Source: Bryobacterales bacterium (GTDB lineage: Bacteria > Acidobacteriota > Terriglobia > Bryobacterales > UBA6623). From it: 64,000 nucleotides of DNA. Position 1 is the stretch's first letter; every line of letters starts with the position of its first letter. The stretch is taken from NCBI GenBank assembly GCA_965206655.1, contig CBDBKC010000032.1:192563-256562 (forward strand), read 5' to 3'. Below the pieces are notes generated by a model that saw nothing but the letters and a program-made list of their open reading frames with translations, did not search any database and had not been told where the DNA came from. Below, piece by piece: positions 29,337 to 59,000 of the stretch. Both the position numbers and the translations under genes were made by a program.

Positions 29337-30350
29337 ATGGCGAGAACAATCACTTACCAGCAAGCGATCGGCGAGGCTCTTGGCCAGGAGATGGAGCGCG
29401 ACGAGTCAGTCATTGTGATGGGCGAAGACGTCGCCGGCGGCTGTGGAGCCGATGGAGAAATGGACGCCTGGGGTGGTGTACTCGGTGTCACCAAAGGACT
29501 GTGGGCCCGGTTTCCCGACCGTGTCCTCGATACCCCGATTAGCGAATCGGCGTTCATCGGAGCCGCCATCGGCGCGGCGACCGCCGGGCTACGTCCGGTG
29601 ACGGAGCTGATGTTCGTTGATTTCATGGGCGTCTGCTTCGACCAGATCTTCAATCAGGCCGCGAAGTTCCGTTACATGTTCGGCGGCCGGGCGGCCACAC
29701 CGGTTGTGATTCGCAGCATGATCGGCGCGGGACTTCGTGCCGCCGCACAGCATTCGCAGTGCCTCTATCCGGTCTTCACCCACATTCCGGGGCTCAAATG
29801 CGTCGTCCCTTCAACTCCTTACGACGCCAAGGGGCTGTTGATCGAAGCGATCCGCGACGACGATCCCGTCATGTTCTTCGAGCACAAGCTCCTCTACTCG
29901 CTCGAGGGAGAGGTCCCCGAAGAGTCCTACACGCTGCCGTTTGGCGAAGCCAATTACGTGCGAGAGGGAGACGACGTCACGATCGTCACCCTCGGACGCA
30001 TGGTTCACAAGAGCACGGAAGCGGCGGATGAGTTGACCAACGACGGGATCGGGTGCGAAATCATCGATCTGAGAACGACCTCTCCACTCGATGAGGAAAC
30101 CGTCCTCGAAAGCGTAGAGAAAACCGGGCGGCTCGTCATCGTGGATGAGGCCTCGCCGCGCTGCAATATAGCCACCGATATTTCCGCCATCGTCGCCCAG
30201 AACGCCTTCGGCTCGCTCAAGGCGCCCATCAAGATGGTCTGCCCCCCTCACACGCCGGTGCCCTTCAGTTCCGTCTTGGAAGACCTGTATATTCCCGACG
30301 CGGGCAAAGTGGCGGCCGCGGTCCGCGACGTGATGACATACAAGGCATGA
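29337..30350 (+). CDS. acoB: Acetoin:DCPIP oxidoreductase E1 beta subunit
   Basis: DAWGGVLGVTKGL, DTPISES, DQIFNQAAK, AAQHSQ. Confidence 0.92.
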   Translation: MARTITYQQAIGEALGQEMERDESVIVMGEDVAGGCGADGEMDAWGGVLGVTKGLWARFPDRVLDTPISESAFIGAAIGAATAGLRPVTELMFVDFMGVCFDQIFNQAAKFRYMFGGRAATPVVIRSMIGAGLRAAAQHSQCLYPVFTHIPGLKCVVPSTPYDAKGLLIEAIRDDDPVMFFEHKLLYSLEGEVPEESYTLPFGEANYVREGDDVTIVTLGRMVHKSTEAADELTNDGIGCEIIDLRTTSPLDEETVLESVEKTGRLVIVDEASPRCNIATDISAIVAQNAFGSLKAPIKMVCPPHTPVPFSSVLEDLYIPDAGKVAAAVRDVMTYKA

Positions 30351-41716: not shown

Positions 41717-42318
41717 GACGGCGGTGGCGTAGGCCTTGCGGGTGTGAGGGTTCCTGATGTTGGCGGTGAAGGGGTCACCTCACGAAACGAAAATAATCGT
41801 ACGCTAAGCGACTCTCGCCGCCTTGGGAAGCGTCGGGTTGGAGTAAACCCTAGCCTGTCGTCAGGGAAGGCAGCGCAGTGGCGTCAGAATAGAGTCCTCC
41901 TTGGAATTGATTGACACATTCCGTCAAGGGTTATAGATTTCTTCCTGACAGATTGGATGCAGGAGGACACCTTGCACGGTCCATCTGCTACGTCCGGGTG
42001 AGCAGCTTCGAGAACCGACGCTACCGCGCCAGCGGCTTCAACCTGCTGGGCTGGGAGCATATCAACCTGACTGGCGATTACATCTGGCCCAAGAACAAGC
42101 GAGTCGATCAGGGCAGCTTCTGGCCCCTACCACCTCTCAACGGGCCTTAGCGTACGATTCTTTCCGTTTCGTGAGGTGACCCCGTGAAGAACTCGAGGAC
42201 GCGCTGGGCGGTGGCCGAGTCGGGAGAGAACAGGGCGGGGGAGCTGGATACCGCCGCCCGGGGGAGTTTCCGGCGTGGGGGTTGAGGTCTTGGGAATCAG
42301 TGTCGGGTAGTTGGGCAT
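41717..42318 (-). pseudogene. N-terminal remnant of a plasmid-type tyrosine recombinase, split by the mini-Tn3
   Basis: Removing the element and one TSD (and one C in a C-run near 42237-42241) gives MPNYPTLIPK..IQLPALFSPDSATAQRVLEFFTANIRNPHTRKAYATAV. Confidence 0.75.
41771..42183 (+). mobile_element. 413-bp Tn3-family (Tn21/Tn501-like) miniature element with res site
   Basis: 38-bp IRs GGGGTCACCTCACGAAACG..AATCGTACGCTAAG at 41771-41808 and 42146-42183; 5-bp TSD GTGAA; res I-III-like sites 41831-41950; tnpR 5' scrap (YVRVSSFE) fused to tnpA 3' scrap (LGWEHINLTGDYIW). Confidence 0.93.
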
Positions 42319-42334
42319 GAGGACCTGCTGATAC

Positions 42335-42362
42335 ATGAATGATAATATCCTTTATCATGCGC
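42335..42362. promoter_or_regulatory. Candidate tyrosine-recombinase crossover site
   Basis: ATGATAA-TATCCT-TTATCAT (7-bp arms, 6-bp spacer) about 20 bp upstream of the recombinase ATG. Confidence 0.45.
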
Positions 42363-42674
42363 GATCAACTCCCCCTCCCGCCGCTCCCCGGCAGGCCATA
42401 ATGCCGGATCGCTCCCTAACGTGTAGTAGAGCAGGAGCTCCCCCCGTGCCCGCCCAACCCGCCTGGTTTCATCGACTTGACGAAATCCTCGCACGGCTGC
42501 GGCCCCGTTTTACATTTAGCCAACGCTTTGGCAAGACCTTAAAGCCCTTTTGGTTCGAGGTCCGCTTGGCCGCCAGCGATTTCTCAGGCCCAACCGACGA
42601 TGGGCTGTCATTACATGATAACCTAAATTAGGTATTTGAAATAGCATAGCATCCCTGTTAGACTCTGACTTGTA

Positions 42675-44369
42675 ATGATCGATCGTGATCTCACGCCGAA
42701 CCTGTTGAGGGCGGCGTCCCAATCACCGGCCCTTACGCTCACCGGGCCTCGGCAAAGCGGCAAGACCACGTTATGCCGAGCCGTGTTTCCGCGGCATCCA
42801 TACGTGGCGCTTGAGGCTCCAGATGTACGCGCGTTCGCGACGGAAGATCCGCGGGCATTCCTGGCTCAATTCCCCAAAGGTGCCGTCATCGACGAGGTGC
42901 AACGCGTTCCCGACCTGCTCTCGTATCTGCAAGGCATCATCGACGACGACCCGTCGCCCGGGCGCTGGGTTCTGACCGGCTCGCAAAACTTGTCCTTGTT
43001 GGAGTCGGTCAGCCAATCGTTAGCCGGACGGACAGCGATGCATCACTTGCTTCCGCTGACCCATGGCGAGGTCACTCGCTTCGCCCGACATCCCAAGAAC
43101 CTCGAAGAGACTCTTTTCGCCGGCGGGTACCCCCGCATCTTCGATCGCAACCTCGATCCGGTGGATTGGCTCCGCTCATATGTTGCCACCTATCTCGAGC
43201 GGGATGTGCGAACGATCAGCAATGTCGGCGACCTCACGATATTCCAACGGTTCGTCGAGTTTTGCGCCGGCCGTACCGCGCAGTTGCTTAACTACTCGTC
43301 ACTGGCCAACGACTGCGCCATTTCACAGCCGAGCGCAAAGGCCTGGATGAGCATTCTGGAGGCCAGCTTTATCGTCTTCCGCCTGCCGGCGTTTCACGCA
43401 AACCTGCGCAAGCGGCTCGTGAAGATGCCGAAACTGTTCTTTTACGACACCGGCCTGGTCTGTTGGCTTCTGGGTATCCGTACGCCGGAGCAGCTTCGAT
43501 CGCATCCACTTCGCGGCTCGATCTTTGAAACCTGGGTCGTCTCGGAGATCGTGAAACACCGAACCAACCGGGGCGAGACGGGCGGTCTGTCATTCTATCG
43601 TGATAGCAACGGTGCCGAAATCGACCTCGTCATCGAGCAACCGGCGCGCATCACGCTGGTCGAAGCGAAGTCCGCCGCGACCGCATCGTCGAGCTTTTTC
43701 GATGGCGCAAAGCGTGTTCGGCGGCATTTTAGTGAGCTGCCCCGTCCCTGTGACGTTGCAGTCGCCTACGGCGGCGATCAATTTCAACAGCGTGCGGACG
43801 GGCGGCTGATACCCTGGCGCATGCTGCGAGCGGCCAGTTTGCCGGACTCCGACCACATCATATCCGTCTTCGCCGCCGGTCGGCCAATTGCCGGCACCAG
43901 CGTCCTTGCACTATTTCCGAACAAGACCTGGAAGCTTGTGACCACGGACGAACACGGTGAGGCTGCCATCGATTTGCACTCAACCCATCTTCCCATGACG
44001 GTGTTCACCGCCGCCGCCGGATACACCGCACACCTAGAACGGGAGTGGACGCCAAGCCAGCGAGCGCTTGTGGTAGAACCCAAACTTCTACCGGAAGGGG
44101 GCTCGGTTATTTTCCCCGAGGGAACCGGTCATGTGCCAGGGTTGACCGGGAGACTGAATCCCATTCGCGATACCCTGGACCGGACCTACCTCTACGCTTC
44201 CAACATTGCCATTAACGAGGGTAGGCAACAGCCGGTTCATTTCGTCCCCGGCGAGGATGTGCGTCTCACGGATGCGGACGGACGGAAAATGCGAGTGCGC
44301 ATCGTCGAGGTTTTGGGTCGGTCGGCGCTTGTGGAGTATCGCCGTCATCCCGAAGCAGCCGGTGAGTGA
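42675..44369 (+). CDS. AAA_14/DUF4143 ATPase with an extra C-terminal domain of about 175 aa
   Basis: GPRQSGKTT, VIDEVQRVP, LTGSQN, GGYP, KRLVKMPKLFFYDTGL, GSIFETWV, EIDLVIE..VEAKS, then an unrelated beta-rich extension. Confidence 0.9.
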   Translation: MIDRDLTPNLLRAASQSPALTLTGPRQSGKTTLCRAVFPRHPYVALEAPDVRAFATEDPRAFLAQFPKGAVIDEVQRVPDLLSYLQGIIDDDPSPGRWVLTGSQNLSLLESVSQSLAGRTAMHHLLPLTHGEVTRFARHPKNLEETLFAGGYPRIFDRNLDPVDWLRSYVATYLERDVRTISNVGDLTIFQRFVEFCAGRTAQLLNYSSLANDCAISQPSAKAWMSILEASFIVFRLPAFHANLRKRLVKMPKLFFYDTGLVCWLLGIRTPEQLRSHPLRGSIFETWVVSEIVKHRTNRGETGGLSFYRDSNGAEIDLVIEQPARITLVEAKSAATASSSFFDGAKRVRRHFSELPRPCDVAVAYGGDQFQQRADGRLIPWRMLRAASLPDSDHIISVFAAGRPIAGTSVLALFPNKTWKLVTTDEHGEAAIDLHSTHLPMTVFTAAAGYTAHLEREWTPSQRALVVEPKLLPEGGSVIFPEGTGHVPGLTGRLNPIRDTLDRTYLYASNIAINEGRQQPVHFVPGEDVRLTDADGRKMRVRIVEVLGRSALVEYRRHPEAAGE

Positions 44370-44857: not shown

Positions 44858-44959
44858 TGGAGCGCCCATGCCAAATGCTCCGAACCTGTACTTTCACCTC
44901 GGCATAGAAGCAGTTCCATCATGCCACGCTACAATCGAGTTCTCCTTTAGTTGAATCGA

Positions 44960-46096
44960 ATGCGCATCATCCATACTGCGGATTGGCAGATCGGCAAGTC
45001 GTTTCGGCGATTTGGTGAACAAGAAGAGCTTTTTCGAACGGCACGCCTCGCGGCGATCAAATCAATTGGCAAGCTGGCCGAGTCCGAGGGCGTCGAGCAT
45101 GTGCTTGTCGCCGGCGACATCTACGACAACGACACCCCTTCACCAAAAACTCTCCGCGAGCCGTTTGAGCGCATGCGCGGCTTCCCGAAGGTGCGTTGGC
45201 ATCTACTGCCGGGCAATCATGATCCGCACCGCCCCAAAGGTGTCTGGGACCGGGTTCGCGATGTGCCGCCACCGCTGAACGTGCATCTTCACCTGACGCC
45301 GCAACCGTTTGATCTCGAGTCAAACGCGGTCCTTCTTCCCGCGCCGCTGACGCGCAAGAGTGAAGGACGCGACCTAACCGAATGGATGGACGAGGCCACG
45401 ACGCCGCACGCCTCGATCCGGATTGGGCTCGCCCACGGTTCCGTAACCGGGTTTGGGACCGACGGCGAGGCGCTGAACCCCATTGCCCCGACCCGTCCCC
45501 AAAGAGCGCGACTCAGCTATTTGGCCCTTGGAGACTGGCACCGGACCGTCGAGGTCGGACCGTTGATCTGGTATGCCGGCACGCCAGAGCCCGACCGCGC
45601 CGGCAGCCAAGAGACAGGACAGGTCCTGCTGATTGAGTTGAAAGGATCCGGAGCGCCTCCGTGCGTCACGCCGCACACGGTGGGCTCCTACCGTTGGCTC
45701 ACCCGCGAAGAGCACCTAGAGCACACGACCCATCTCGAAGATTTCGAAACGCGCTTGCGCGCCTTGCCGGATCTCTCCGCCACGGTGTTGCGCCTGATTC
45801 TGAAAGGAGCGCTTCCACTGAGCGCACTCGCCGATTTGCGCCAAAGATGCGAGGGGTTGGAGGCAGCGCTCTTACATCTGGAGGTGGATGACAACGAGTT
45901 GGCGTCCCGTCCCACCGAAGCCGACCTAGAGATGATCGACTTCAGCGGCGTGCTGCGGCAAGCCGCCGAGCGGCTCCGAGCACTAGCTGCGGACGCCTCG
46001 AAGGGTGCTGCCGAGCGCCACCGTGCGGAAGACGCGTTGGTCGAATTGTATCTCCGGGTTACCGCGGACGGAAGACCGCACGGAGCGGCGGCATGA
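44960..46096 (+). CDS. SbcD/Mre11-like (YhaO-type) metallophosphoesterase nuclease
   Basis: HTADWQIG, VAGDIYD, LPGNHD, GLAHGS, YLALGDWH, YAGTPEPD. Confidence 0.92.
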   Translation: MRIIHTADWQIGKSFRRFGEQEELFRTARLAAIKSIGKLAESEGVEHVLVAGDIYDNDTPSPKTLREPFERMRGFPKVRWHLLPGNHDPHRPKGVWDRVRDVPPPLNVHLHLTPQPFDLESNAVLLPAPLTRKSEGRDLTEWMDEATTPHASIRIGLAHGSVTGFGTDGEALNPIAPTRPQRARLSYLALGDWHRTVEVGPLIWYAGTPEPDRAGSQETGQVLLIELKGSGAPPCVTPHTVGSYRWLTREEHLEHTTHLEDFETRLRALPDLSATVLRLILKGALPLSALADLRQRCEGLEAALLHLEVDDNELASRPTEADLEMIDFSGVLRQAAERLRALAADASKGAAERHRAEDALVELYLRVTADGRPHGAAA

Positions 46097-48780
46097 AAAT
46101 CCGGGGGATAGAGATCGAGGGGGTCGGGATGTTCGCCGCCCCGACACGAATTGAAGGATTGGGGCCGGGGGTCAACATCCTCTCGGCCGAAAACGAGGCC
46201 GGCAAGTCGACGATATTCAAGGCTATCCGGGCCTGTCTGTTCGAGCGACACAGCACGAAAACCCGGGACATCCTTGCGCTCGCAACCGCGGGCCGGTCCT
46301 TGCCTGTTACCGTCTCCCTGGACTTCGAGCATGACGATGCGCGGTACGAACTGACGAAGTCCTTTCTCAAGAGTCCCAAGGCGGAACTGCGACGAGAGGG
46401 CGAAACCATCGCTCGTGACCGAGAGGCCGACGATCAGACATGGCGCTTGCTCGGTATCGCTCCTGGGAGCGGGCGCTCTGTCGATGAAGCGGCGTTCGGA
46501 CTGCTTTGGGTAGCACAAGGCAAGTCATTAGCGGTGCCGCAACCCACGGAGGCGGCGACCACGGCTCTCAACGAGGCGATCCAGCGGGAGGTTGGCGAGT
46601 TGGTCGGTGGGGAACGGGCCCGCACCGTTCTTCAGTCTTTGCAATCTGATCTGGACAACCTCGTCACAAAAGGAGGTCGTCCGAAGACGGGCGGCCCGTA
46701 TCACGACGCCCAAAGCTGGCTTGACGAGTTAGACGACGAACTCCACGATGCAGAACGTCGATTGACGAATCTTGATGGCCAGATCGCAGAGCTTGCGTCC
46801 AAGCGTAGCGATCACAAGAGACTCGTCGATCCCCGCGAAGCCGAGCGGATCAACGGCGAGTTGGAATCGGGTCTACAGGCCCTGCAGCACGACGAGAACG
46901 CTCTGAAACTCCTGCAAGAGGCCGCAACGGATGAGAAGCTTGCTGCCGCCAAGCGCAAGGAAGTTGAGACCAACCTTAACAATTTACAAGAACGCGCCGA
47001 GCGGATCGACAGCGACCGCAAAGAGATGCATGAGATCGAGGAGGAATTGCGTCCTCTGGCGGAGCAGGAGAGAGAAGCACGCGAAAAGATCAAAAACGCC
47101 GAACAAGCCGTTGCCGAGATTGACGCGGAGGAAGTAAAGCGTCAGCAACGCCTGAGAGAATTGAAACACATCGCCTCGGCCGTCCAGAACGCTGAACAAA
47201 AACCCCAGTTGCAGAAGCGCGCCGGAGAACTCCGCAATCTCCAGGAGGAGCTTATGCGGAACCGGCTGGATCTCAGCGAAAACCGGGCCACGGCGGAAGT
47301 TGTCGAGAAAATGGATTGGCTCGAGCGCGACCTCAATCGCTTGACAGACAGAATGGAAGCGGCAGCGCCTCAGGTCGAGATCGCGCTGGGATCCTCTGCG
47401 ACTGGACAGGTGTGGATCGGGCAGGAGAAACTGGCCGAAAACACGTCGTTGCGCGCGATGAAACCACTCGAAATCCGGGTCGGAGAGTTGGCGACCATCA
47501 CAGTGTCACCTCCGCCGGGCACCGACGAAAACGACCAGAAAAATCAAAAGCGTTTGCAGGGCGCGCTGGAACGGTTGCTCGCCGATCTCGGGGCCGTGAC
47601 CTCCGCGGATGTCCGCCTCACACGCGTTCACCGCCAAGACTTTGAGCGTGACCGACAGGGTATTGAAGCCCGAATGGAGGCCCTTGGTGTCGTTGAGGGG
47701 GAGCTTGCCGCAGAGGCGGAAGCGATCCGTGAGAAATTGCAGCAGGTCGACCGCTCCGTCCACAAAATTCTCGATGACTACTCTCTTGGCGCCCTGCCAG
47801 CACTAGAGGAGATCAATTCCGAGCAACAGTCCGTAAGCGAGAGTCAGGGCGAGGCTTCGCGGAAGCGGAAGGCCCTCGAAGGGACGGTCGCGGCCCACAA
47901 TGAAAAACTGAGCGAGACCGTCAAAAAGCTCGGCGCCGCTCGAGGGAAGCAGTGGACGATTCAACGACGCCTCGGAGGCGAGCTCGCCGCGCTCCCGGAT
48001 GCGGACCGCGAACGGCTGACCTCCAGGGTGCAGGGAGCCTTTGAGAAAGCGAGTCAAGAGTATGGGGGAAAGGCCGCAGCGCTGGAAGAACGCCAACGCC
48101 AAGCCCCCAAGGACGAAGAAGTGGAGAGGCGTCGCCTCCAAATCGGACGGCTTAAGCAAGCTCTGACGAACCGGCATAAGCAGGTTGAAGAGCTCGAAAA
48201 GGCCATCGCCAAGCTCGAAGGCGGCATTGAGAACGCGGGCGGGGACGGGCTCGGCGAGAAAGAACAAACGCTTCGCGAGCAGCACGGCCTGGTAAGTCGC
48301 GAGGTCAAGCGCCACAAGCAGCGCATTGCGACGCTGGAGCTTCTGGCAGCGACGATTGAGGATTGCTATAAGGGGCAGCGGGAGCGGCTGCATACTCCCT
48401 TGTTACGGCATCTTCGGCCTTTTCTGCACGACGTATTCCCTTTAGCGGAGTTGAAGCTTGGGGACGGTTTCGCGGTGGAAGGCCTCAAGCGAGACGGTCC
48501 GGACCCTGAAAACTTCGAACAACTCTCGGACGGGACGAAAGAGCAGGTCGCCGTGCTCGTCCGGCTCGCCATGGGCGCGATGCTTTGTGACCGCGGCCAG
48601 GAAGCACCAATCATTCTCGATGACGCCCTGGTCTTTTCCGACGACACGCGCATCGAGCAGATGTTCAATGCGCTGACCCGAGCCGGGGGAAACCAGCAGG
48701 TGATCATCTTCACCTGCCGAAGCCGCACATTCGAAACCCTCGGCGGCCGGCGGCTCTCGATCAGGCAGGACGGCGGGTAA
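46093..48780 (+). CDS. SbcC/Rad50-like (YhaN-type) coiled-coil ATPase
   Basis: Walker A AENEAGKST, long coiled coil, signature LSDGTKEQ, Walker B/D-loop ILDDALVFSD, H-loop FTCR; 4-bp overlap with the nuclease gene. Confidence 0.92.
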   Translation: MKIRGIEIEGVGMFAAPTRIEGLGPGVNILSAENEAGKSTIFKAIRACLFERHSTKTRDILALATAGRSLPVTVSLDFEHDDARYELTKSFLKSPKAELRREGETIARDREADDQTWRLLGIAPGSGRSVDEAAFGLLWVAQGKSLAVPQPTEAATTALNEAIQREVGELVGGERARTVLQSLQSDLDNLVTKGGRPKTGGPYHDAQSWLDELDDELHDAERRLTNLDGQIAELASKRSDHKRLVDPREAERINGELESGLQALQHDENALKLLQEAATDEKLAAAKRKEVETNLNNLQERAERIDSDRKEMHEIEEELRPLAEQEREAREKIKNAEQAVAEIDAEEVKRQQRLRELKHIASAVQNAEQKPQLQKRAGELRNLQEELMRNRLDLSENRATAEVVEKMDWLERDLNRLTDRMEAAAPQVEIALGSSATGQVWIGQEKLAENTSLRAMKPLEIRVGELATITVSPPPGTDENDQKNQKRLQGALERLLADLGAVTSADVRLTRVHRQDFERDRQGIEARMEALGVVEGELAAEAEAIREKLQQVDRSVHKILDDYSLGALPALEEINSEQQSVSESQGEASRKRKALEGTVAAHNEKLSETVKKLGAARGKQWTIQRRLGGELAALPDADRERLTSRVQGAFEKASQEYGGKAAALEERQRQAPKDEEVERRRLQIGRLKQALTNRHKQVEELEKAIAKLEGGIENAGGDGLGEKEQTLREQHGLVSREVKRHKQRIATLELLAATIEDCYKGQRERLHTPLLRHLRPFLHDVFPLAELKLGDGFAVEGLKRDGPDPENFEQLSDGTKEQVAVLVRLAMGAMLCDRGQEAPIILDDALVFSDDTRIEQMFNALTRAGGNQQVIIFTCRSRTFETLGGRRLSIRQDGG

Positions 48781-49010: not shown

Positions 49011-49121
49011 AGGCGCGCAGGTGGGGATACGCTGCGCCGAATCCGGCAATCGCGACACACGGAGGCCCGAGGCCCTTCGCCGACTTGAGAGTGATGGCCT
49101 TGATCTAAACCGAACCGCTAC

Positions 49122-51893
49122 TCAAAACCGGGGGGCGTCGGGGCTGCTAGACACCTCTGGCTCGACATAAGTTGGCCGGCCAGGCAATCGGCTGAGATCA
49201 GCAACACCAGGGTCCGCCAACCATCCAACGAAATCACTCGCTACGAGCCGCCCGGTCAGCACTCGCATCAGTCCCTCCATGAATACGCTGTGTCGAGCGA
49301 GAGTAATTGACCGTGACGCAGCCGCCTTCTTCTTTGAATGCTCGTCGAAATCCGGTTTGCCAAGCGTCACTCGTTTCATTCTTATCTCAAAGTCCGCTGC
49401 CTTCTGCAACACGTCAAATGCTTCGCCCTTCGTAATCAGCGGCGGCTTCTTCGTCACAGTCTTGCATTCAATCAACAGAGCCGTACCACCAATTTCGAGC
49501 AAGATATCAGGTACATTCTGTTGCTTCCTATCGTCCAGCTTGCTGACTGTCCAATTCAATTCTTCGTGGAGGAGATCAATGATCGCGTCCTCGTAGTCGG
49601 TCCCGAGGCTGTTGTTGCACCTGGCGATCTTCTCTTCAATACCGATTTCCCGTCCAAGCCGAAGGTGCAGGCGCTCGAAGCTTATGGAAGCACCATCAAA
49701 GCTATCGGACAAGGCAGCCACGAGCCCAGCGGCCCTTTGGGCCGAGCCCAGCAGCTTCACAAGTCGTTCTTTTCCGGCGCCTATCACGTCCATGACCGTT
49801 GCCAGCCCGTTCACAATCAAAGCCATCGCGCGCTGCCGCCCGAAGCCAGGGACTCCTCGTCGATTCGCAATTCGGAGTACATCGAGCGCTTCCACAGGAG
49901 CGCCCCAGCGAACCCGTCGGGCGAGCATGCCGATGTGGTTTGTCAGCACTTGCGCGTGACCAAGGTCAGAAGTGCCTGACACACGGCGTAGGCCATCGAA
50001 AATCCAGCTGAGATCGATCGAAAGACGATGCAGCTGACCGGCAGATACTCCCGTGAAGAATCGTATTTTCCGTTCGGCTTCGCCTTGGATGAACAATCCC
50101 ATCGCATGAACGCACCGCGTCACTTGGTCATTGGTCCTATCCCACGCCGTCAGGTGAGCTCCCTCTTGCATAAACACAGACGATTCTGGCTTCATTCGAC
50201 CCGCTGCGTAAGGCAGGAACCTGCTAGACGGGTCATCTGTAAACTCCGGACACGTCAATGCCCAATGGATCAGCCCCACCTCATGGACGGCGAAATTATC
50301 CTGTATCTGATTGGAATGTTCGGCGAGAAGATCAACACACTTCTTAGCAGTTTCCGGCATGAGGCCAGACAGTGAGGTGGATTTACCAAGCGGCGTCGCC
50401 TGAATGGTCGCGTGGCTCTCTTCGACGAACTGATGCTTCAGGAGCCAGTCAACAGAGGTGATTGCTTTGGCAACGATCTCCTCGAGGAGCTTGGGTTTGC
50501 TCTCAGGCACCTGATGCCAGTAAAACGTGTTCTTGAAGAATGCGTCGAGTTCGTCTTTCGACAATACAGCGCCCGCAGCCACGAGCGCGAGGACTGTCCG
50601 ACGCATACTCAAAGTTACGAGTTGCGAAACCACGCAGTCATTCTCGGGTGACACGAGCTGGTTCGCGTGCTGAAACTCTGCGTGGTTCCTTGGCAGGAGA
50701 ATCACACGGCCGTCCTCATGGTAGTTGAGTCGTCCCGCCCGTCCAGACATATTGCGGTAATCAGACCTGACAAACAGACGCCCTTCTCGGTTGCCGAATT
50801 CGTATGTCAACTTCGGGATGATCACCGTTCGAAACGGGAAATTCACACCAGCTGCGAGCGTCGATGTGGCGAAACAGACATCAAACGTCGATTTCATGAA
50901 ACCTGATTCGATGACAGATCTTTCATCCAGTGTGAGGTCGGCAGTGTGGAAGGTGACCCGTCGTTCGGCGTACGACATGAGATCCTGTGACGACTCTGTT
51001 GGCTCCGAGTAGAGTTCGAGCTGTTTCGAGATGGCGAGCCCAGCGGATCCTCGTTCGCACTGTCCACTGTACTCACGTGCCAGTTTCGACGCCTCTCGTC
51101 GCGTCTCTGTAAAAACAAGAACGGGGCCAAAACCATCGTTGATGACTTTTCGAACGGCTCCGCAGACATCGGTATGTCCGAGTGTATCCGCCGTGGTCTT
51201 GCCATCAGTCTGGCCGAACCGAACCGTGTATTGCAGGCCGTCATAGCGGATGGTCTGGATGAGCTCGACATCGCGCTTGGCACTTCGAACCGATTGACAA
51301 TTCATCCATGCGGCGAGATCCTCGGCATTCTCGACTGTTGCCGTCAACCCGACGAACTGGTGCGGTTGCCGCTGACGGAGAAGCGCACAGAGAGTTTCGA
51401 CCGATGCGCCACGCCCTTCTTCGCCGAGTAGTTGTAGCTCGTCGGCAATGATGACCGACTTCTCCACTTTGATACGCCCGGCGAGAATTAGCCCCAGCGC
51501 CTTTTCGTATGTCGAAATAAGGACCCGGCAGCTGACATCTCCCTCTTCACGATCTCCTGTGCTGATGCCGACAGTCACAGCTGACTTCCATCTTGGTTTC
51601 GAGAAGCGATCGGCAAAGTCGGAGAATTTCTGCTCGGCAAGTGCTTTGTGCGAGACGAGGTACAGCGCGTCGAATTCATCGCTTAGCGCGTTCGCCAAAG
51701 CGAGTTCGCCGATCAATGTCTTGCCGGATGACGTCGGGGCGCAGACGATCGCACTTGAACCCAACGGTACACCTGCTACGATTGCGAGTTTTTGAATATC
51801 AGTGAGCGATTTGATGCCCCATTCTTCCAGACATAATGTGAGCAATTCAGTTAGCTTCGCGGCAGACGTCCCGGTTGTCTGTTCGTTGGGCAT
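49122..51893 (-). CDS. Ski2/Hel308-like SF2 helicase with a C-terminal PD-(D/E)XK nuclease domain
   Basis: APTSSGKT, SHKALAEQK, ADELQ, TAT, FHTADL, ATSTLAAGVNFP, NMSGRAGR, HhH-like VPGFGRQRA, then E..I..L / VPDILL / IECK. Confidence 0.88.
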   Translation of the reverse strand: MPNEQTTGTSAAKLTELLTLCLEEWGIKSLTDIQKLAIVAGVPLGSSAIVCAPTSSGKTLIGELALANALSDEFDALYLVSHKALAEQKFSDFADRFSKPRWKSAVTVGISTGDREEGDVSCRVLISTYEKALGLILAGRIKVEKSVIIADELQLLGEEGRGASVETLCALLRQRQPHQFVGLTATVENAEDLAAWMNCQSVRSAKRDVELIQTIRYDGLQYTVRFGQTDGKTTADTLGHTDVCGAVRKVINDGFGPVLVFTETRREASKLAREYSGQCERGSAGLAISKQLELYSEPTESSQDLMSYAERRVTFHTADLTLDERSVIESGFMKSTFDVCFATSTLAAGVNFPFRTVIIPKLTYEFGNREGRLFVRSDYRNMSGRAGRLNYHEDGRVILLPRNHAEFQHANQLVSPENDCVVSQLVTLSMRRTVLALVAAGAVLSKDELDAFFKNTFYWHQVPESKPKLLEEIVAKAITSVDWLLKHQFVEESHATIQATPLGKSTSLSGLMPETAKKCVDLLAEHSNQIQDNFAVHEVGLIHWALTCPEFTDDPSSRFLPYAAGRMKPESSVFMQEGAHLTAWDRTNDQVTRCVHAMGLFIQGEAERKIRFFTGVSAGQLHRLSIDLSWIFDGLRRVSGTSDLGHAQVLTNHIGMLARRVRWGAPVEALDVLRIANRRGVPGFGRQRAMALIVNGLATVMDVIGAGKERLVKLLGSAQRAAGLVAALSDSFDGASISFERLHLRLGREIGIEEKIARCNNSLGTDYEDAIIDLLHEELNWTVSKLDDRKQQNVPDILLEIGGTALLIECKTVTKKPPLITKGEAFDVLQKAADFEIRMKRVTLGKPDFDEHSKKKAAASRSITLARHSVFMEGLMRVLTGRLVASDFVGWLADPGVADLSRLPGRPTYVEPEVSSSPDAPRF

Positions 51894-51905
51894 GGAGTCT
51901 ATCCT

Positions 51906-52010
51906 GTGGCGGACGTATCAGTGACCGAAGGCGATCCGGTGCCAGTGATTCGCGGCTTGGCGAGTCGCGGTGTCGGAAGCAAGACAATCGCGCGGATGGT
52001 CGGGGTCAGT
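51906..52010 (+). pseudogene. Possible HTH scrap of an IS21-like transposase N-terminus
   Basis: IRGLASRGVGSKTIARMVGV; only about 30 codons. Confidence 0.3.
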
Positions 52011-52366
52011 TATTCCTGTTGCTTGACAAGGGTTTCGAGCAGTAGGCCGAACCCGAACCCCTTGCGCCGGTCCGATTCCTTTCCGGTACGCCTCGCCTAA
52101 GCGCTCCCGGTCTGTAGCCAGCAAGACCGTGGGTGACACGCCTACCGAAGCATTCAAGCTAAGCGAGTGCGGCTTGCTCGGCGGTGGCATCGGTGAAGGT
52201 GACCATGTCACCCTATTGCAGCTCCCACCGTTGCCGCAATTCAAGACACTGATTAGCTCAACGCTCATGCTTTCCTTCAATCAGTCGGCTCATTCTCCCA
52301 CGTCGCCTCTGACAAGAATCACAGAGAAACAAGCCCGGCCACAAAGGGAAGAGCTGATGCCCCCTG

Positions 52367-52544
52367 GAGGGTGTCCCAAACTCCGTTGAAGGTTGGGGCG
52401 ACGGGTTGAGTTCATCTTACGCCACTTTCTCCTTCTGAGAGGCGGTAGCTATACTCGTGCGGCCGAGGATTCCGGCCAAAGTCCACAGATCTTGGTAACC
52501 GATGATCTTGCGAAAGTTCTTCTCGGTCAGCGCCCAAGCCTAGG
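52367..52544 (-). mobile_element. 3' end remnant of an IS256-like element
   Basis: WALTEKNFRKIIGYQDLWTLAGILGR..EKVA* followed by an end-like sequence ..TTCAACGGAGTTTGGGACACCCTC. Confidence 0.6.
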
Positions 52545-52583
52545 AATGCGCTCCTCTTGACGCTCGGTGTTATATTTGACACC

Positions 52584-52811
52584 ATGCTATATGAGAAGCA
52601 GAGATACCCGGCCGATTCCGGCGTATTCGAGGTGGCGCTCAAGTACCGCACTGATGCGTGTCGGACGGTCTACACTCTGCAGTTCGGGGAGCGGCTTTGG
52701 GTTTTGCACGCCTTCCAGAAGAAGGCGAAGCAGTGCATCAAGACCCCGAAGAAGGATATCGATCTGATCCGCGAGCGTCTTAAACAATTGAAGAAGGAGT
52801 TACAGCAATGA
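52584..52811 (+). pseudogene. higB: HigB/RelE (Gp49-like) toxin, 5'-truncated
   Basis: SGVFEVALKY..RTVY..LWVLHAFQKK..IKTPKKDIDLIRERLK; the N-terminal third of the family appears to be missing. Confidence 0.75.
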
Positions 52812-53140
52812 GCAAGACAGACGACGATTTTAAGCTGGTGCACGGCAGCGGCAATGTCTTCCGTGACTTCGGGCGCGCTGACGCCGACGTGCAGCAGACC
52901 AAGGCGCTTCTAGCCGCCCGCATCATCGGCATTCTTGACGATGAAGGGCTTTCGACGCGCAAGGCCGAGGGTCGCACCGGTGTCAGCCATGCGGACTTTA
53001 CCCGCATTCGCAACGTGCAGCTTGACCGCTTCACCATTGACCGACTGATGACCGTGCTCAACAAGCTCGGCCAGCATGTAGACGTGCAGATCGACATTCA
53101 CCCGCACCTGACCGCTGAAGAAGCGCCGGCGCATCCGTGA
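52808..53140 (+). CDS. higA: HigA-like XRE antitoxin
   Basis: GSGNVFRDFG, HTH, RFTIDRLMTVL; overlaps the toxin stop. Confidence 0.85.
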   Translation: MSKTDDDFKLVHGSGNVFRDFGRADADVQQTKALLAARIIGILDDEGLSTRKAEGRTGVSHADFTRIRNVQLDRFTIDRLMTVLNKLGQHVDVQIDIHPHLTAEEAPAHP

Positions 53141-53372
53141 GTGTCTGTGCTATTTGAACAGCCGATCTCGCGGGATTTCTTGCAGACCAAGGCTACGAAC
53201 GTCTTTTTGCGCGGGGGCGTTGCTAGACGCGCAAAGACCATCAACCGCGATGGACTGATCGTGGCGCACTACCAGTCGGGCTGCTTCGCTTGCTGCTGAG
53301 AGGGGGCAAGCCTGCCCCCAAGAGGAGTCTTTCCTAAAGAAGAACCTCCTTTGGTGTAATCACGTTGGAGAC

Positions 53373-56039
53373 TTGAGCTTCCCCTATATGACCCTCATCA
53401 CAGCAACCACGCGCCTGTCCCGCGAGCTCCAGCGCGAATACGCCCGGGAGCAGGTGGCGGCCGGTCTTTCGACGTGGCCGACAGCGCACATCCTTCCGTT
53501 TCAGGCGTGGCTTGCCGAACTCTGGGATACGTCAGTGTATTCCGGGGAAGTTGGCGGGACCCTACGGTTGCTTCGGCCGTCTGAAGAGCGGGCGATCTGG
53601 GAGGACATCATCCGTGCCGATGGGGAGAGCCCCTTACTGGAAGTTCCGGCAACGGCCGCAGCCGCACTGAGAGCGTGGGGGCTGCTCTGCGAATGGGGCC
53701 TTCCATGGGATGCACCGGAATGGAACGACTCCACCGACTCGAAGGTGTTTTACCGGTGGGCGCGGGAGTTCCGGCGGCGGTCGAGGGAGAACGGGTGGTT
53801 GTCGAACGCGGAGTTGCCGGTCTTTATCGCGGACCGTATTGGAGAGGGGGCGATTCCGGTTCTCGAGCAGGTTGAGATCGTCGGGTTCCTGGAACTGACG
53901 CCGGTCCAGAAGCGACTGTTCGATACGCTGACCTCTCGGGGAACAGAAATCAAACAACGGGTGGTCTCGCAGGCTCCGGGGAATGCTGTCCGCATCGGTC
54001 TGGTCGACACTGACCGGGAAATCCGTGCCGCGGCCGAATGGGCGCGGCGGATTCTGGAGACCGACACGGAGGCAAGCTCGCCGGAGTTTCGAATAGGGAT
54101 TGCGGTAGCCAATCTCGAACAGTGCCGAGGCCGCGTGGAGCGTATCTTTTCTGAAGTATTTCATCCCACAAGCCATCTTCGGCCGGATCGGGATACTCAC
54201 CGCCTGTTCAATATTTCCCTGGGGCTGCCGCTCGGTGAGTACCCGATCATCGCCGCGGCATTTTTGGTCCTCGCAAGCCGGCCTCATGGCATTCCGGTGG
54301 AAACGCTGGGCCGGCTTCTCCGATCTCCGTTCCTTCGGGGTGCGGCGTCTGAGTGGACCAGCCGCACTCTCCTGGACGCCGCGCTGCGTTCGTTGAGAGA
54401 GCCGGAAGTTTCACTGCAGGACGTACTTGCTTTGGCCGGGCGAGCCGACGTCCCGTACCACTGTCCGGAGCTTCAGTCGCAACTGATTGCCTGGCGCAAA
54501 TTCCGGCAGGAGTTAACGCCTCACCAGATGCCCAGCGACTGGGCGGCATCGTTCTCAGGTCTTCTCGAAGCCATGGGATGGCCGGGTGCCGGGCCCCTCG
54601 ACAGTGTTCAGTTCCAGACGATCAAAAAGTGGCATGAATTCCTTTCGGACTTTGCCGGACTGGACAGTGTCCTCGGCAGCATAGGGCTGGAGGCGGCCGT
54701 CGGGAGGTTGTATCGCCTGACCTCAACCGGGCAGTTTCAGCCCGAGTCCGACCCGGCACCGGTTCAAATCCTCGGCCTGTTCGAGACTTCCGGTCTGGTT
54801 TTTGACCGCCTCTGGATCATGGGGATGCACGATGCGGCGTGGCCGCCGCCGCCCAGCCCCGATGCATTCCTGCCGTTTCGGCTGCAGCGCAAGTTCGATC
54901 TGCCGCGGTCTTCGCCGGAGAGGGAACTGGAATTTGCACACACGCTGACCGCGCGGCTCGTGGCCAGCGCACCTAGTGTCGTTGTCAGCTATCCCCAACG
55001 TGCAGATGATTCCGATCTGAGAGTCAGTCCGCTCTTCCAGACGCTGCCGGAGGTGGAGGCGGAAGAGCTGGGGCTCCTGGGTTCCGATCGTTACGTCCAT
55101 GCTCTCCGGGAGTCTCGCCGGTGTGAGGTTGTGGAGGATCACAACGGGCCCGGGTTGGCGGAGGCGTCTGCCGGCGGCGGGACGTCGCTGTTCAAGCTTC
55201 AGGCGATGTGCCCGTTCAAAGCGTTTGCCGAACTGCGCCTGGGGGCGACGGAGTTGGATGAGGCCGAAACCGGATTGAGCGCGCTGGACCGCGGGCTTCT
55301 GATTCACCGGGTGCTTCAGAGGATCTGGGATGTGCTGGGTTCGCATGCCGGTCTGCTTTCGACGGGCGACGAGCAACTGGCCGATATCGTGCGGAGGACG
55401 GTGGCTGCCGAGCTGTATGCTTTTGGCCGGCGTCGGCGGGCGCTACGGCGGGAGCGGTTCACGGAGATCGAACAGAAGCGGGTCGAGCGCGTAATTGCGG
55501 AGTGGTTGCAGCTTGAGCGGGAGCGTCAGCCGTTTACCGTGATCCAGCAGGAAGCCCGCCGGCGGGTAACGGTGGGCGGGATTGATCTCAGCATCCGGGC
55601 CGATCGTATGGACCGTCTCGAAAACGGGGACTTTGTCGTTCTTGACTACAAGACCGGCGAATGCAGTGCTTCGGACTGGTTCGGATCCCGGCCCAATGAT
55701 CCTCAGCTTCCCATCTATGCCGTCACGGCCGAAGCTCCCGTCGCCGGCGTGTTCTACGGACAGCTCAAGACCGGGAAGGTGGCATTCCGCGGGATGATGG
55801 ATTCTGAAGGCTTGGTTCCGGGCGTCAAACCTTCCCGGGACGCGGTTTCCATCGACCAGAAGATTGACGGCTGGCAGGACGTGCTCGATCAGTTGGGGGA
55901 GGATTTCCGGGAAGGTCGGGCCGCAGTGGACCCGAAGGACCGTCGCAAGAGCTGCCAGTACTGCGCGCTGCCGACGCTTTGCCGGATCAACGAGGCTCAG
56001 CGTGCCTGGGATGCTGGCGGGGAGTACACGGATGCCTGA
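53373..56039 (+). CDS. AddB-like PD-(D/E)XK nuclease / probable DNA repair protein
   Basis: Degenerate helicase fold; Fe-S staple Cys (MCPF..CQYCALPTLC); RADRMD..VLDYKTG. Confidence 0.85.
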   Translation: MSFPYMTLITATTRLSRELQREYAREQVAAGLSTWPTAHILPFQAWLAELWDTSVYSGEVGGTLRLLRPSEERAIWEDIIRADGESPLLEVPATAAAALRAWGLLCEWGLPWDAPEWNDSTDSKVFYRWAREFRRRSRENGWLSNAELPVFIADRIGEGAIPVLEQVEIVGFLELTPVQKRLFDTLTSRGTEIKQRVVSQAPGNAVRIGLVDTDREIRAAAEWARRILETDTEASSPEFRIGIAVANLEQCRGRVERIFSEVFHPTSHLRPDRDTHRLFNISLGLPLGEYPIIAAAFLVLASRPHGIPVETLGRLLRSPFLRGAASEWTSRTLLDAALRSLREPEVSLQDVLALAGRADVPYHCPELQSQLIAWRKFRQELTPHQMPSDWAASFSGLLEAMGWPGAGPLDSVQFQTIKKWHEFLSDFAGLDSVLGSIGLEAAVGRLYRLTSTGQFQPESDPAPVQILGLFETSGLVFDRLWIMGMHDAAWPPPPSPDAFLPFRLQRKFDLPRSSPERELEFAHTLTARLVASAPSVVVSYPQRADDSDLRVSPLFQTLPEVEAEELGLLGSDRYVHALRESRRCEVVEDHNGPGLAEASAGGGTSLFKLQAMCPFKAFAELRLGATELDEAETGLSALDRGLLIHRVLQRIWDVLGSHAGLLSTGDEQLADIVRRTVAAELYAFGRRRRALRRERFTEIEQKRVERVIAEWLQLERERQPFTVIQQEARRRVTVGGIDLSIRADRMDRLENGDFVVLDYKTGECSASDWFGSRPNDPQLPIYAVTAEAPVAGVFYGQLKTGKVAFRGMMDSEGLVPGVKPSRDAVSIDQKIDGWQDVLDQLGEDFREGRAAVDPKDRRKSCQYCALPTLCRINEAQRAWDAGGEYTDA

Positions 56040-59000
56040 CCGCATTCAGGATCAGGAGCAACGGAGGCGGGCGCTCGATCATTCACAGTCGTTTATCGTG
56101 CAGGCGCCGGCGGGTTCGGGAAAGACCGAGCTCCTGATCCAGCGTTTCCTCACGTTGCTGAGTCTATCTGATCAACCCGAGTCGATTGTGGCGATCACGT
56201 TCACGCGGAAGGCGGCAGCCCAGATGCGCCAGCGGGTGATTGGCGCCCTTCAGAACGCTTCCGAGCCTGCGCCCGAAACCGCGCACGAGCATTTCACCTG
56301 GAAGCTGGCGCGGGCCGCGCTGGCGCGGAACGACACGTTCAATTGGCGCCTGATCGAGAACCCGGGTCGCCTTCGCATCCAGACGATCGATTCATTGTGC
56401 GCCACCTTCGTCCGGCAGATGCCCTGGGTCTCGCGCCTGGGTGCGCCCCCGCATCCCGAAGACAATGCCGCCCATCTGTACCGTCAGGCGGCGACCGGAA
56501 CGCTCCAGATGCTGGACTCTCCCCGGACGCCGGATGTGGTTGCCGAGGCGCTCTCAAAACTCCTGTCGCATCTGGACAACAACTTCGGGACCGGCGAAAA
56601 GCTCCTCGCGACGATGCTGGCCAGCCGCGACCAGTGGTTGCGCCACGTCGTGGGGAACCCCGAGGTTGAACGTCTGCGCGACGAGCTCGAGGATTCGCTT
56701 CGGGAAGTCGTCGAAGCCGCGCTCGGAGAGCTGGCAGCCATCTTCCCCGCACGCTTCAAGACCGAAACGGTCGAACTGGCGCAGTTTGCCGCCGGGAACC
56801 TCTCCCGCGATGGCAAGTCCGGTGACGTCCTGGCATGCGTGGGCCTGCAGGGGTTTCCCGCGGCGTCGGTGGATTCGCTCGAGCAATGGCGGGGATTGGC
56901 CGGACTGTTTCTGACGGGGCAGGGCACGCGGCGACAGCGTCTGACCAAGAACGAAGGGTTTCCGGCCGGCGACAGAGGCCGGAACGCTAAAGAGCGTCTC
57001 AATGCCATCGAGCTCGACGACACGGTCGTAGAGCGGTTGCACGCGGTGCGCTCGCTCCCGCTCCCCCGGTTCGAAGCCGCGCAGTGGGACATGATGGGCG
57101 CGCTGCTGGTGCTTCTTCCCGTCGCGGTCTATCAGCTCCGGTCGGTCTTTCAGCAGGAGGGCCGTGTGGACTTCACCGAGATCGCGATCGGCGCACGGAC
57201 CTCGCTGGGCACAGATGCGGAGCCCACGGACTTGGCGTTCGCCATCGACTGCCGGATCCAGCACTTGCTCGTCGATGAGTTTCAAGACACATCCCAGAGC
57301 CAGTACGAGCTTCTGACCCGGCTCGTAGGGGATTGGCAACCCGATGATGGGCGGACGCTGTTTCTCGTCGGCGATCCGATGCAGTCGATTTACGGTTTTC
57401 GTGAGGCGGACGTGGGTCTCTTTCTGCGGGCCCGGACCGAAGGCGTCGGTCCGGTCGCGCTGACCCCGCTCACGCTTTCGGTTAACTTCCGTTCCACTGC
57501 GGGGGTCGTGGACTGGGTCAACCGCACGCTCGGCACAGCGTTTCCATCGGTCGAGGACCGGTTCACAGGCGCGGTGACCTACGAGCCGTCCGTCCCGTTC
57601 AGGACGGAGTCCGATGAGTACGCCGTGCACGTGCATGCGTTCCTTTCGAGCGATCTGGATCTAGAAGCGGAGCGGGTTCTGAAGATCATCGGGGAGACCC
57701 GGACCCAGCATCCGGACGGCACGATTGCCGTGTTGGTCCGATCCCGTTCCCACCTCTTCGGAATTGTGTCGGCCCTGCGGAGAGCCGGGGAGCGGTTTAG
57801 CGCCGTCGAGATCGACACGCTCGTCGAGCGCCCCGTCGTCGGGGATCTCGTCGCGCTCACCCGGGCCCTGTTGCATCCGGCGGACCGGATCGCCTGGCTC
57901 TCGCTCCTGAGAGCGCCGTGGTGCGGCCTGATACTGACGGATCTCCACGCGCTCGTCGACGGCGATTTCAACCGGGCGGTCTGGGATATTTTGAAGTCCG
58001 GGGAGTGGCGGACCCGTTTGTCGCCCGATGGCATCGGACGGCTCGAACGTTTGATTCCCGTTCTCTCTGACGCGATTGACCGGCGGGGCACACTCGCAGT
58101 GCGGCGGTGGGTGGAAGGCGTGTGGATCGCGATGGCGGGACCGGCGTGCCTGGAAACCCGGACCGACCTGGAAGCCGCCGCTGCTTATCTCGATCTGCTC
58201 GAACAATCCATGGTCGGTCTCGACATCCGCGATGAACAGAAGTTTGCCGACGACATCGCGCGTCTGTTCGCTCCGTCCGATGTGGAAGCCGGGGACGGGT
58301 TGCAGTTGCTGACGGTTCACAAGGCCAAGGGCCTGGAGTTCGACACGGTGATCCTCCCCGGACTCGGTCGCCGGACCCGAACGGACGACCAGCGCCTGCT
58401 GATGTGGCTGGAGTACATGAGTAGTGGGGAGCCGCGGCTTCTACTTGCGCCGATCCATAAGGTGGGGGGCGACAAGGATCCCGTCTACGACTACCTGCGC
58501 AAGGTCCATGCCACCAAGAGCGACCAGGAGAGCACGCGCCTCCTGTATGTGGCCGCGACGCGGGCCCGGCGGCGGCTGCATCTTCTGGGGCACACCCGGC
58601 TCGATCAAGACGGGAGGGCGTTCAAGGCGCCGGATCCACGGGTGCTGTTGAGTAAAATTTGGGACGTGGTGAAGGTGGATTTTGTCGAGACGCTCCGGGG
58701 GTCAGGCGGGCAAGACACGCAGCTTCAAAAGGATGCGGAGCTTGCGGGCATTCCCTTGAGGAGGCTGAGCCTCGACTGGACGGCGCCCGCCCCACCCGAA
58801 GATATCGCCTGGAACGCCGCTAGCCGCGCGGATTCCGAGGAGGTTGGAGTCCACCGGCCCGTCTTCGAATGGGCCGGCGAACTCCAGCGGCGGGTCGGCA
58901 TTGTGGTGCATCGCATGTTGCAGCAGATGCACGCGCGGGACGGGTTGGCCGTGCGCGAAGACACTCTCCGTGCCGCCCTCCGGTCGGAAGGCCTGGACGG

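Follow-up and report, generated by a model that had tools for sequence, protein, structure and literature searches.

Hachiman (HamA with HamB) and AbpAB couple a Ski2-like DNA helicase to a nuclease of the PD-(D/E)xK type, and each consists of two genes. HamB, the Ski2-like sensor helicase of Hachiman, has been described as functionally Hel308-like, and in the same account Hel308 itself is stated to be absent from bacteria (PMC12278908). Hna is a single-protein defence of 845 aa that combines a DinG/XPD-like helicase carrying a reduced Arch domain with a PD-(D/E)xK nuclease (PMC13381803), and Druantia DruE and the BREX-related helicase-nucleases represent different families (10.64898/2026.05.13.724313; PMC12839542). 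In archaea, Hel308, also called Hjm, interacts physically with Hjc (PMC13623763, a 2026 review; PMC6061704). Exploring a 64,000-nt stretch of a Bryobacterales bacterium genome (contig CBDBKC010000032.1, positions 192,563 to 256,562; hereafter the window), we found on its minus strand an unbroken open reading frame (ORF) of 923 codons with an ATG start (P0001; Table 1) whose product joins a Hel308-type helicase to a predicted PD-(D/E)xK nuclease. An original prediction, made from the sequence, had described this gene as a stand-alone Ski2/Hel308-like helicase fused to a restriction-type nuclease and had proposed a one-polypeptide analogue of Hachiman, AbpAB and Hna. In its structural part the proposal holds, given that helicase and nuclease lie in one chain, that no partner is conserved and that no named system matches over the full length. 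A literature search found no description of a bacterial Hel308-nuclease fusion. We regard the protein as a novel version of the helicase-nuclease conflict proteins already known, not as a system of a new kind, and its family is uncharacterised.

Helicase half and predicted nuclease of the 923-residue protein

Pfam searches of the helicase half returned DEAD, Helicase_C and HTH_61, and four NCBIfam Hel308 equivalog models aligned end to end over residues 17-718 (best E 1.5e-87). The best sequence matches in the PDB were the archaeal Hjm/Hel308 structures 2zj2, 2p6r and 9b15, with E values of 1e-50 to 3e-56 over residues 14-720, whereas the HamB structure 8vx9 reached E 2e-5 and HamB models covered no more than parts of the RecA core (91 bits at best). 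PHROG 6819, annotated as Holliday junction branch migration helicase, matched residues 22-699. A full-length AlphaFold2 model based on 55 homologues (predicted local distance difference test, pLDDT, 86.4; predicted template modelling score, pTM, 0.82) superposed on 9b15, 2zj8 and 2p6r at template modelling (TM) scores of 0.83-0.86, and its top Foldseek matches were all archaeal Hel308/Hjm (target-normalised TM 0.78-0.86, E ~1e-35), followed by the helicase domain of Pol theta and then by Brr2. No Hna-like, DinG or XPD structure appeared among the best sequence or fold matches in the PDB. As judged from alignments and model, the helicase half is a complete five-domain Hel308 architecture consisting of RecA1, RecA2, winged helix, ratchet and helix-hairpin-helix (HhH) domains; the predicted Ski2/Hel308-like helicase with a Hel308-like HhH segment is thus borne out, and lies much nearer to Hel308 than to HamB.

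The protein shares with Hel308/Hjm, as with HELQ and the Pol theta helicase domains, the five-domain layout and the superfamily 2 (SF2) motifs over residues 17-720, as well as the motif of HhH domain 5, which is invariant in the family studied here. It differs from Hel308/Hjm in its sequence (24-26% identity), in its Walker B motif, which reads DELQ, in belonging to a family that is bacterial, accessory and mobile, and in an extra nuclease domain of ~200 aa that Hel308 is missing. Scores remained far below the equivalog cut-offs (best 294.7 versus 887 bits for NF002654; 207 versus 1200 for NF040935, Hel308), and on these sequence scores the helicase is therefore a divergent paralogous Hel308 branch and no orthologue.

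The claim of an intact 923-aa frame with all motifs in place proved accurate. The motifs are located at residues 52-59 (Walker A, APTSSGKT), 151-154 (DELQ), 315-320 (FHTADL), 381-388 (NMSGRAGR), 681-689 (VPGFGRQRA), 766-772 (DYEDAII), 794-799 (VPDILL) and 808-811 (IECK), and they are conserved in homologues, as seen in alignments of 20 and 55 full-length proteins and of 42 C-terminal domains. K58, D151, E152, Q154, R385, R388, Y767, P795, D796 and K811 were invariant or nearly so, and E809 was kept in at least 90% of the aligned homologues. Position 768 was nearly always acidic, being E and sometimes D, with E in at least 90% of the 42 C-terminal sequences. The HhH residues V681, P682, G683 and G685-R688 were invariant in the alignments of 20 and 55 sequences. 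Pairwise ratios of non-synonymous to synonymous substitution rates (dN/dS) were 0.46, 0.23 and 0.19 against relatives of 93, 84 and 79% identity, and the helicase-nuclease gene is therefore under purifying selection.

For the C-terminal domain, sequence methods gave hints only. The Pfam family Hjc (PF01870) stayed under its gathering threshold (13.8 versus 21.1 bits, E 0.057, residues 791-836), a nuclease profile built from 42 sequences and searched against the PDB yielded a weak match to the Hjc structure 1ob8 (E 0.74) and otherwise spurious matches to designed repeats, and PHROGs contained no match to the domain. Fold comparison was therefore needed. The model of residues 725-923 (pLDDT 89.8) shows a helical bundle followed by an alpha-beta-beta-beta-alpha-beta core of the PD-(D/E)xK type. 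Foldseek against the PDB returned AF1548, the FokI cleavage domain, the XPB partner Bax1, many Hjc, MspJI, BspD6I, HindIII, LmuA and Can2 at probabilities of 0.9-1.0 (0.96-1.0 for AF1548, FokI, Bax1, Hjc, BspD6I and MspJI), and against the viral models of BFVD it returned Mrr-like restriction endonucleases (E 2e-5), Holliday-junction resolvases and VRR-NUC proteins. In the model the first core helix carries E768, strand 2 carries PD795-796 and strand 3 carries E809-x-K811; the spacing from D796 to E809 is 13 residues, an arrangement in keeping with the canonical PD-(D/E)xK catalytic layout. The confident model, the nuclease matches and the conserved set of acidic residue 768, D796, E809 and K811 agree with the nuclease that had been predicted: judged by fold and conservation, the C-terminus adopts the PD-(D/E)xK nuclease fold and keeps a complete putative catalytic set.

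The domain shares with Hjc the nuclease fold, the E..D..ExK set and the D-to-E spacing, which in Hjc is likewise 13 residues, but it is larger, has an N-terminal helical bundle and resembles the AF1548, FokI, Mrr and Bax1 types just as closely. A search of the nuclease-domain profile against 1.84 billion cluster representatives gave 155 clusters at E <=1e-3. Those examined were C-termini of 900-970-aa helicases, gene fragments, proteins of ~455 aa and a distant subfamily of ~965 aa with the same domain layout and 28% full-length identity. Going by these profile matches, the nuclease module is essentially private to this helicase superfamily.

Comparison with described helicase-nucleases sets the protein apart from each of them. 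Hachiman and AbpAB differ in being two-gene systems, and, as had been noted, a HamA/DUF1837 domain was not found among the neighbours of the gene in the window. Hna resembles it in that a single chain carries an SF2 ATPase at the N-terminus and a PD-(D/E)xK domain at the C-terminus, and in being stand-alone and horizontally spread; by its published description, Hna is DinG/XPD-like and not of the Ski2/Hel308 type with winged-helix, ratchet and HhH domains. Relative to the archaeal Hjm-Hjc pair, two interacting archaeal activities would here be joined in one chain. XPB-Bax1, Hef, Druantia DruE, Cas3 and Nhi likewise rely on a translocase to bring a nuclease to DNA structures or to license it there, but they belong to other helicase families, carry other nuclease types, or both; the Hef model matched RecA1 only (E 1e-5), and the Bax1 nuclease is among the top fold matches of the C-terminal domain. 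The PADLOC-DB v2.0.0 profiles gave no full-length match to an already named system. The B component of PDC-M23 reached at best 105.8 bits, covering only residues 236-429 against model positions 551-740 of 1060, and no conserved neighbour accompanied it.

Several observations on related proteins stand beside these results. Recurrent proteins of ~455 aa (P0169, P0186, P0215 and similar) consist of ratchet, HhH and nuclease only, and in one relative genome the gene is split at about residue 465 (G023:C1:515602-518321); the ~455-aa class may represent natural two-gene variants or frameshifted copies. The protein collection entry for the locus in the window is a 542-aa product starting at M382 (P0039, 100% identical; window 49122-50750, residues 382-923), and a 98% relative was entered as 527 aa (P0041). 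The 542-aa entry may differ from the intact 923-codon frame because of a gene-calling choice, or because another assembly contains a frameshift. Two giant-virus proteins annotated as superfamily II helicases, A0A3G5A8T3 of Hyperionvirus (976 aa) and A0A1V0SJ58 of Klosneuvirus (1115 aa), showed a similar nuclease fold in BFVD (probability 0.89-1.0), and analogous helicase-nuclease fusions may, on these models, exist in Nucleocytoviricota.

Distribution, transfer and genomic surroundings of the family

A word-indexed protein search returned 546 proteins at E <=1e-3. The best 120 of the 546 mostly had lengths of 897-941 aa and matched 96-100% of the query at 49-93% identity; those among them with a name carry the annotation 'DEAD/DEAH box helicase' only. 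Scanning one genome per species (185,579 species) with two peptide patterns, which makes the count a lower bound, we located 65 loci with about 50 full-length family members, all of them bacterial. The carriers belong to at least seven phyla: Pseudomonadota, Acidobacteriota, Planctomycetota, Bacteroidota, Verrucomicrobiota, Thermodesulfobacteriota, Poribacteria and Chloroflexota. In a maximum-likelihood tree the phyla were intermixed on strongly supported branches, with Aeromonas caviae paired with a Sphingobacteriia bin, Nitrosomonas with a Geopsychrobacteraceae bin, and the window gene placed with Acidobacteria and Planctomycetes. The gene was absent from six of six genomes of the window's own genus, one of the 40 relatives searched had a recognisable copy, which was frameshifted, and the GC content of the gene is 0.551 versus 0.605 for the genome. 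The 95% DNA identity to the closest relative (locus L071; 93% protein identity) is confined to window 49083-52307 and stops 39 bp after the ORF and 414 bp before it. Given the absence from the genus, the GC shift, the patchy spread among species and the intermixed phyla, the gene is accessory and transferred: it is recently acquired cargo of a mobile island, and the family is rare, restricted to bacteria and spread between phyla as a single gene. The vertical core-gene status that Hel308 has in archaea and metazoa does not apply, with 65 of 65 loci bacterial in addition to the genus and tree results, and a housekeeping orthologue in conserved core synteny, the outcome that would have spoken against the prediction, was not what we found. 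Split or frameshifted copies occurred at L006, L042, L044, L053 and G023; sporadic decay of this kind is usual for defence genes. A frame of 127 codons in a genome of a related genus (G007:C1:481587-481841), 51% identical to helicase residues 18-102, seems from its sequence to be left over from another family member.

When about 1000 ORFs flanking the gene at the 65 loci were clustered by all-against-all BLAST at two stringencies, no neighbour proved to be conserved across these loci, and the idea of a conserved partner gene was rejected. In ten independently annotated contexts, each covering ~10 kb around the gene, the surroundings were integrative or mobilisable elements or defence islands in nine cases by qualitative tally, with restriction-modification of types I, II and IIG represented among them. 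The window contributes IS1595, IS4 and IS21, ParA, a mini-Tn3, a PDC-S01 candidate, an accessory SbcCD-like pair and a Gp49/HTH_37 toxin-antitoxin pair. Tn3 fragment, type I HsdM, AAA_13, M78 peptidase and HigBA surround the gene at L071, and integrase, ParA, toxin-antitoxin pairs, XamI restriction-modification and AAA_21-DUF4435 at L072. ArdC and a large orphan methyltransferase accompany it at L073-75; integrase, BsuBI/PstI endonuclease, Eco57I, methyltransferases and DUF87 at L076; MobC, relaxase, ArdC and RelE at L078; integrase, a superfamily 1 (SF1) helicase with an RNase_H_2 domain, ArdA, HipAB and relaxase at L079/80; the same SF1 helicase, ArdA and TraI at L081; and MmeI-type restriction-modification with a Panacea antitoxin domain at L082. 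Mostly housekeeping genes surround the copy at L077. Type I HsdR, AAA_15 ATPases of the OLD/PARIS/Gabija-like type (three loci) and a methyltransferase with a ResIII helicase were found as further neighbours, and among 136 immediate neighbours the commonest Pfam families were AAA_15/AAA_21, phage integrase, N6_N4 methylase, AbiEii, ResIII and Mrr_cat. For the window, the original prediction had spoken of restriction, toxin-antitoxin and mobile-element debris; the toxin-antitoxin pair, the insertion sequence (IS) and Tn3 debris and ParA are present, but no clear restriction-enzyme remnant adjoins the gene.

Defence reading and its alternatives

The location on mobile elements and defence islands and the patchy transfer between phyla suggest, by analogy, a single-polypeptide helicase-nuclease that senses DNA structure and serves as a one-gene defence against phages or mobile elements, a reading to which we assign a probability of about one half. 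Tentatively, and with less assurance, we propose that the family would be a previously unrecognised single-gene immune system in which a Hel308-lineage helicase fused to an Hjc/Mrr-like nuclease circulates between bacterial phyla on integrative elements and defence islands. In such a system the motor would load, Hel308-like, on 3' single-stranded tails or branched DNA such as forks, D-loops and nicked or resected ends, and by analogy with Hel308 it would move 3'->5'. The nuclease follows directly after the HhH 'brake' domain and would thus sit where the tracked strand leaves the motor, cutting the DNA being processed, possibly as a dimer like Hjc and FokI. Self and non-self would be told apart by structures or ends that characterise phage DNA in replication or plasmid DNA on entry, since with no methyltransferase or other partner conserved the discrimination would have to rest on these. 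Discrimination of this kind would place the protein alongside Hachiman, Hna, Nhi, Gabija and Druantia DruE, a placement that in turn favours the one-gene defence or anti-mobile-element reading.

A number of points weigh against defence. The PADLOC-DB matches are limited to a generic helicase core (PDC-M23B, HamB, SngC, BrxHI), canonical Hel308 and Hjc are enzymes of repair and recombination, and the phage and PLSDB plasmid collections contained no full-length family member; their only matches were distant Hel308-like helicases at 24-32% identity and without the nuclease. The neighbour tally is qualitative rather than a controlled test of enrichment, and some copies lie among housekeeping genes (L077, L016). 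Several copies adjoin ArdA or ArdC on conjugative or mobilisable elements, which would fit a role in serving the element too, and the patchy island context as a whole fits repair and conjugative establishment equally well.

The alternative that survives best, though we regard it as unlikely, is a repair or fork-processing enzyme carried by mobile elements, the fused bacterial counterpart of archaeal Hjm(Hel308)-Hjc or of Hef. Such an enzyme would remodel and cleave stalled forks or Holliday junctions and give the host or the element extra damage tolerance, comparable to that conferred by umuDC/rumAB or Ku/LigD cassettes on plasmids or integrative and conjugative elements (ICEs). The closest characterised relatives of both halves, Hel308/Hjm on one side and Hjc/Bax1-type nucleases on the other, are indeed repair proteins, the archaeal partners bind each other as cited above, and the PHROG 6819 match points the same way. 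The gene also lies between accessory SbcCD-like and AddAB-like end-processing genes, with SbcCD-like pairs within 10 kb of the gene in L071 and L021; these pairs, however, are unrelated beyond the ATPase core, and no repair gene is linked consistently across the 65 loci. Extreme patchiness together with restriction-modification, toxin-antitoxin and OLD-like neighbours is more typical of conflict systems, and dN/dS of 0.19-0.46 seems high for a repair enzyme by general expectation.

Less probable still would be a function in establishment, anti-defence or inter-element competition of conjugative or mobilisable elements, in which the protein, encoded near anti-restriction genes in or near the leading region, might have the incoming single strand as its substrate or might target resident DNA or competing elements. 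This would account for the distance of 0-6 genes to ArdA/ArdC in four contexts (L081, L079/L080, L078, L073-75), for the relaxase within 10 kb in L078, L079 and L081, for the same-strand run with ArdC and a 707-aa orphan methyltransferase in L073-75 and for the pairing with a 1130-aa SF1 helicase that carries an RNase_H_2 domain in three alphaproteobacterial loci. By similarity search, however, Ard genes occur in about three of the 65 species-level loci and are not among the frequent neighbour families, many islands lack conjugation genes (L076, L082, L071 and the window), and cargo regions of integrative elements are classic sites of defence systems as well. A component of an island-specific multi-gene system with the SbcCD-like pair, the toxin-antitoxin or the AddAB-like genes is very improbable: physical adjacency in the window and a Metallophos plus large-ATPase pair 6.5 kb from the gene of the 93% relative speak for it, but none of these neighbours is common to other family members and the homology to the closest relative ends at the gene's own borders.

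If the gene serves defence, it would be a compact one-protein addition to the helicase-nuclease class whose motor is the best-understood Ski2-like DNA helicase, allowing direct questions on the DNA structure sensed and on gating of the nuclease by the HhH brake. True Hel308-type helicases would then be present in bacteria as mobile genes, which bears on the link between repair and immunity proposed for Hachiman; next to HamB, the protein would be a second and closer connection of the Hel308/HELQ repair lineage to prokaryotic defence, and a 'Rosetta-stone' fusion in which the archaeal Hjm-Hjc repair pair has been turned to immunity. As a repair enzyme, it would be a natural fusion supporting functional coupling of Hjm and Hjc. 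The family is open to experiment because cultivable strains carry members, among them Caulobacter ginsengisoli DSM 18695, Dyella nitratireducens DHG59, Sphingobium sp. Leaf26, Methylomonas spp. and Aeromonas caviae CECT 838.

Neighbouring features of the window

Table 1. Coordinates in the window of the helicase-nuclease gene, its domains and motifs, and features around it
Feature	Window coordinates	Strand	Basis or remark
Whole ORF (P0001), Hel308-family helicase with predicted PD-(D/E)xK nuclease	49122-51893	-	Family matches, full-length model
RecA1, ~residues 25-205	51279-51821	-	Pfam DEAD E 6e-22; invariant K58, D151, E152, Q154
RecA1 motif APTSSGKT	51717-51740	-	
RecA1 motif DELQ (Walker B variant)	51432-51443	-	
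RecA1 motif III, TAT	51333-51344	-	
RecA2, ~residues 206-415	50649-51278	-	Pfam Helicase_C; invariant R385, R388
RecA2 motif FHTADL	50934-50951	-	
RecA2 motif VI, NMSGRAGR	50730-50753	-	
Winged-helix domain 3, ~residues 416-500	50394-50648	-	Pfam HTH_61 E 2e-6; aligns with Hel308 domain 3
Helical ratchet domain 4, ~residues 501-665	49899-50393	-	Hel308 equivalog alignment; all-helical in model
HhH domain 5, ~residues 666-720	49734-49898	-	Invariant motif; Hel308 matches span domain
HhH motif VPGFGRQRA	49827-49853	-	
C-terminal predicted nuclease domain, ~residues 721-905	49179-49733	-	AlphaFold2 model, Foldseek, weak Pfam Hjc, motif conservation
Putative catalytic E768, DYEDAII	49578-49598	-	
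Putative catalytic D796, VPDILL	49497-49514	-	
Putative catalytic E809 and K811, IECK	49461-49472	-	
Upstream leader	51894-52307	-	Travels with gene in L071; last ~170 nt nearly identical
AAA_14/DUF4143 ATPase, PDC-S01 candidate	42675-44369	+	Full-length match to PADLOC phage-defence candidate, E 1.9e-103
Accessory SbcD-like (Metallophos) and SbcC-like (SMC_N) pair	44951-48780	+	Convergent with helicase; not itself a conserved partner
Gp49 (HigB-like) toxin and HTH_37 antitoxin	52557-53140	+	

The upstream leader contains a frame of 120 codons (51918-52280), which against L071 showed ~16 amino-acid changes from ~25 nt changes, mostly non-synonymous, and no match in Pfam or PADLOC. By this substitution pattern and the absent family match the frame is probably non-coding leader. 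Around the gene, Rfam gave no match at E <=1, and promoter and terminator consensus scans performed no better than shuffles, with no sigma-70 consensus seen. A search for runs of any kind returned no matching run labelled RNA, no dedicated RNA search having been made. Metagenome contigs confirmed the gene and its link to the SbcC-like gene in several samples. The 3.2-kb unit was rejected as a transposon, as no inverted repeats were found; the only arms are those of the mini-Tn3 (38 bp, at 41771-42183).

Two observations concern DNA outside or at the edge of this unit. A 162-bp stretch adjoining the mini-Tn3 in the window (42331-42491) is 91% identical to L071 18878-19039 and may be a shared small mobile element. 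In four metagenome runs, contig depth over window 52107-53174 was 10-60 times that of the helicase gene, with many contigs breaking at 52241-52272, which suggests that a multi-copy or widely shared element abuts the helicase unit at 52107-53174.

The nearest defence-type gene to the helicase-nuclease is the PDC-S01 candidate, a single-gene candidate of PADLOC; the match spans its residues 1-354, and its C-terminal ~200 aa are extra and unmatched. Homologues of the SbcC-like protein in the same genus were just 26-30% identical, and its own genome contained no second copy at E <=1e-10. L071 and L021 also have Metallophos plus large-ATPase pairs within 10 kb of the helicase, which are unrelated to the pair of the window: the SbcD-like proteins are 24% identical between the window and L021, and between the window and L071 the SbcC-like proteins have only the ATPase ends in common. 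In three alphaproteobacterial loci a protein of ~1130 aa with RNase_H_2 and AAA_11/AAA_12 (SF1 helicase) domains lies beside the gene (L079 12797-16195, L081 6397-9807, L046 1765-2093), and L079 and L081, both ICE-like, also carry ArdA. A whole-genome search for the 374-aa gene of the window at 30347-31468, run with no positive control, gave no match. Beyond the toxin-antitoxin genes, the window holds an AddB-like (PDDEXK_1, 888 aa) and AddA-like (UvrD and PDDEXK, 1171 aa) pair at 53373-59379. The AddB-like gene was absent from six of six same-genus genomes, with its own genome as control, and a genome from a different genus (G007) has it at 96% identity; the pair is not core and looks recently transferred.

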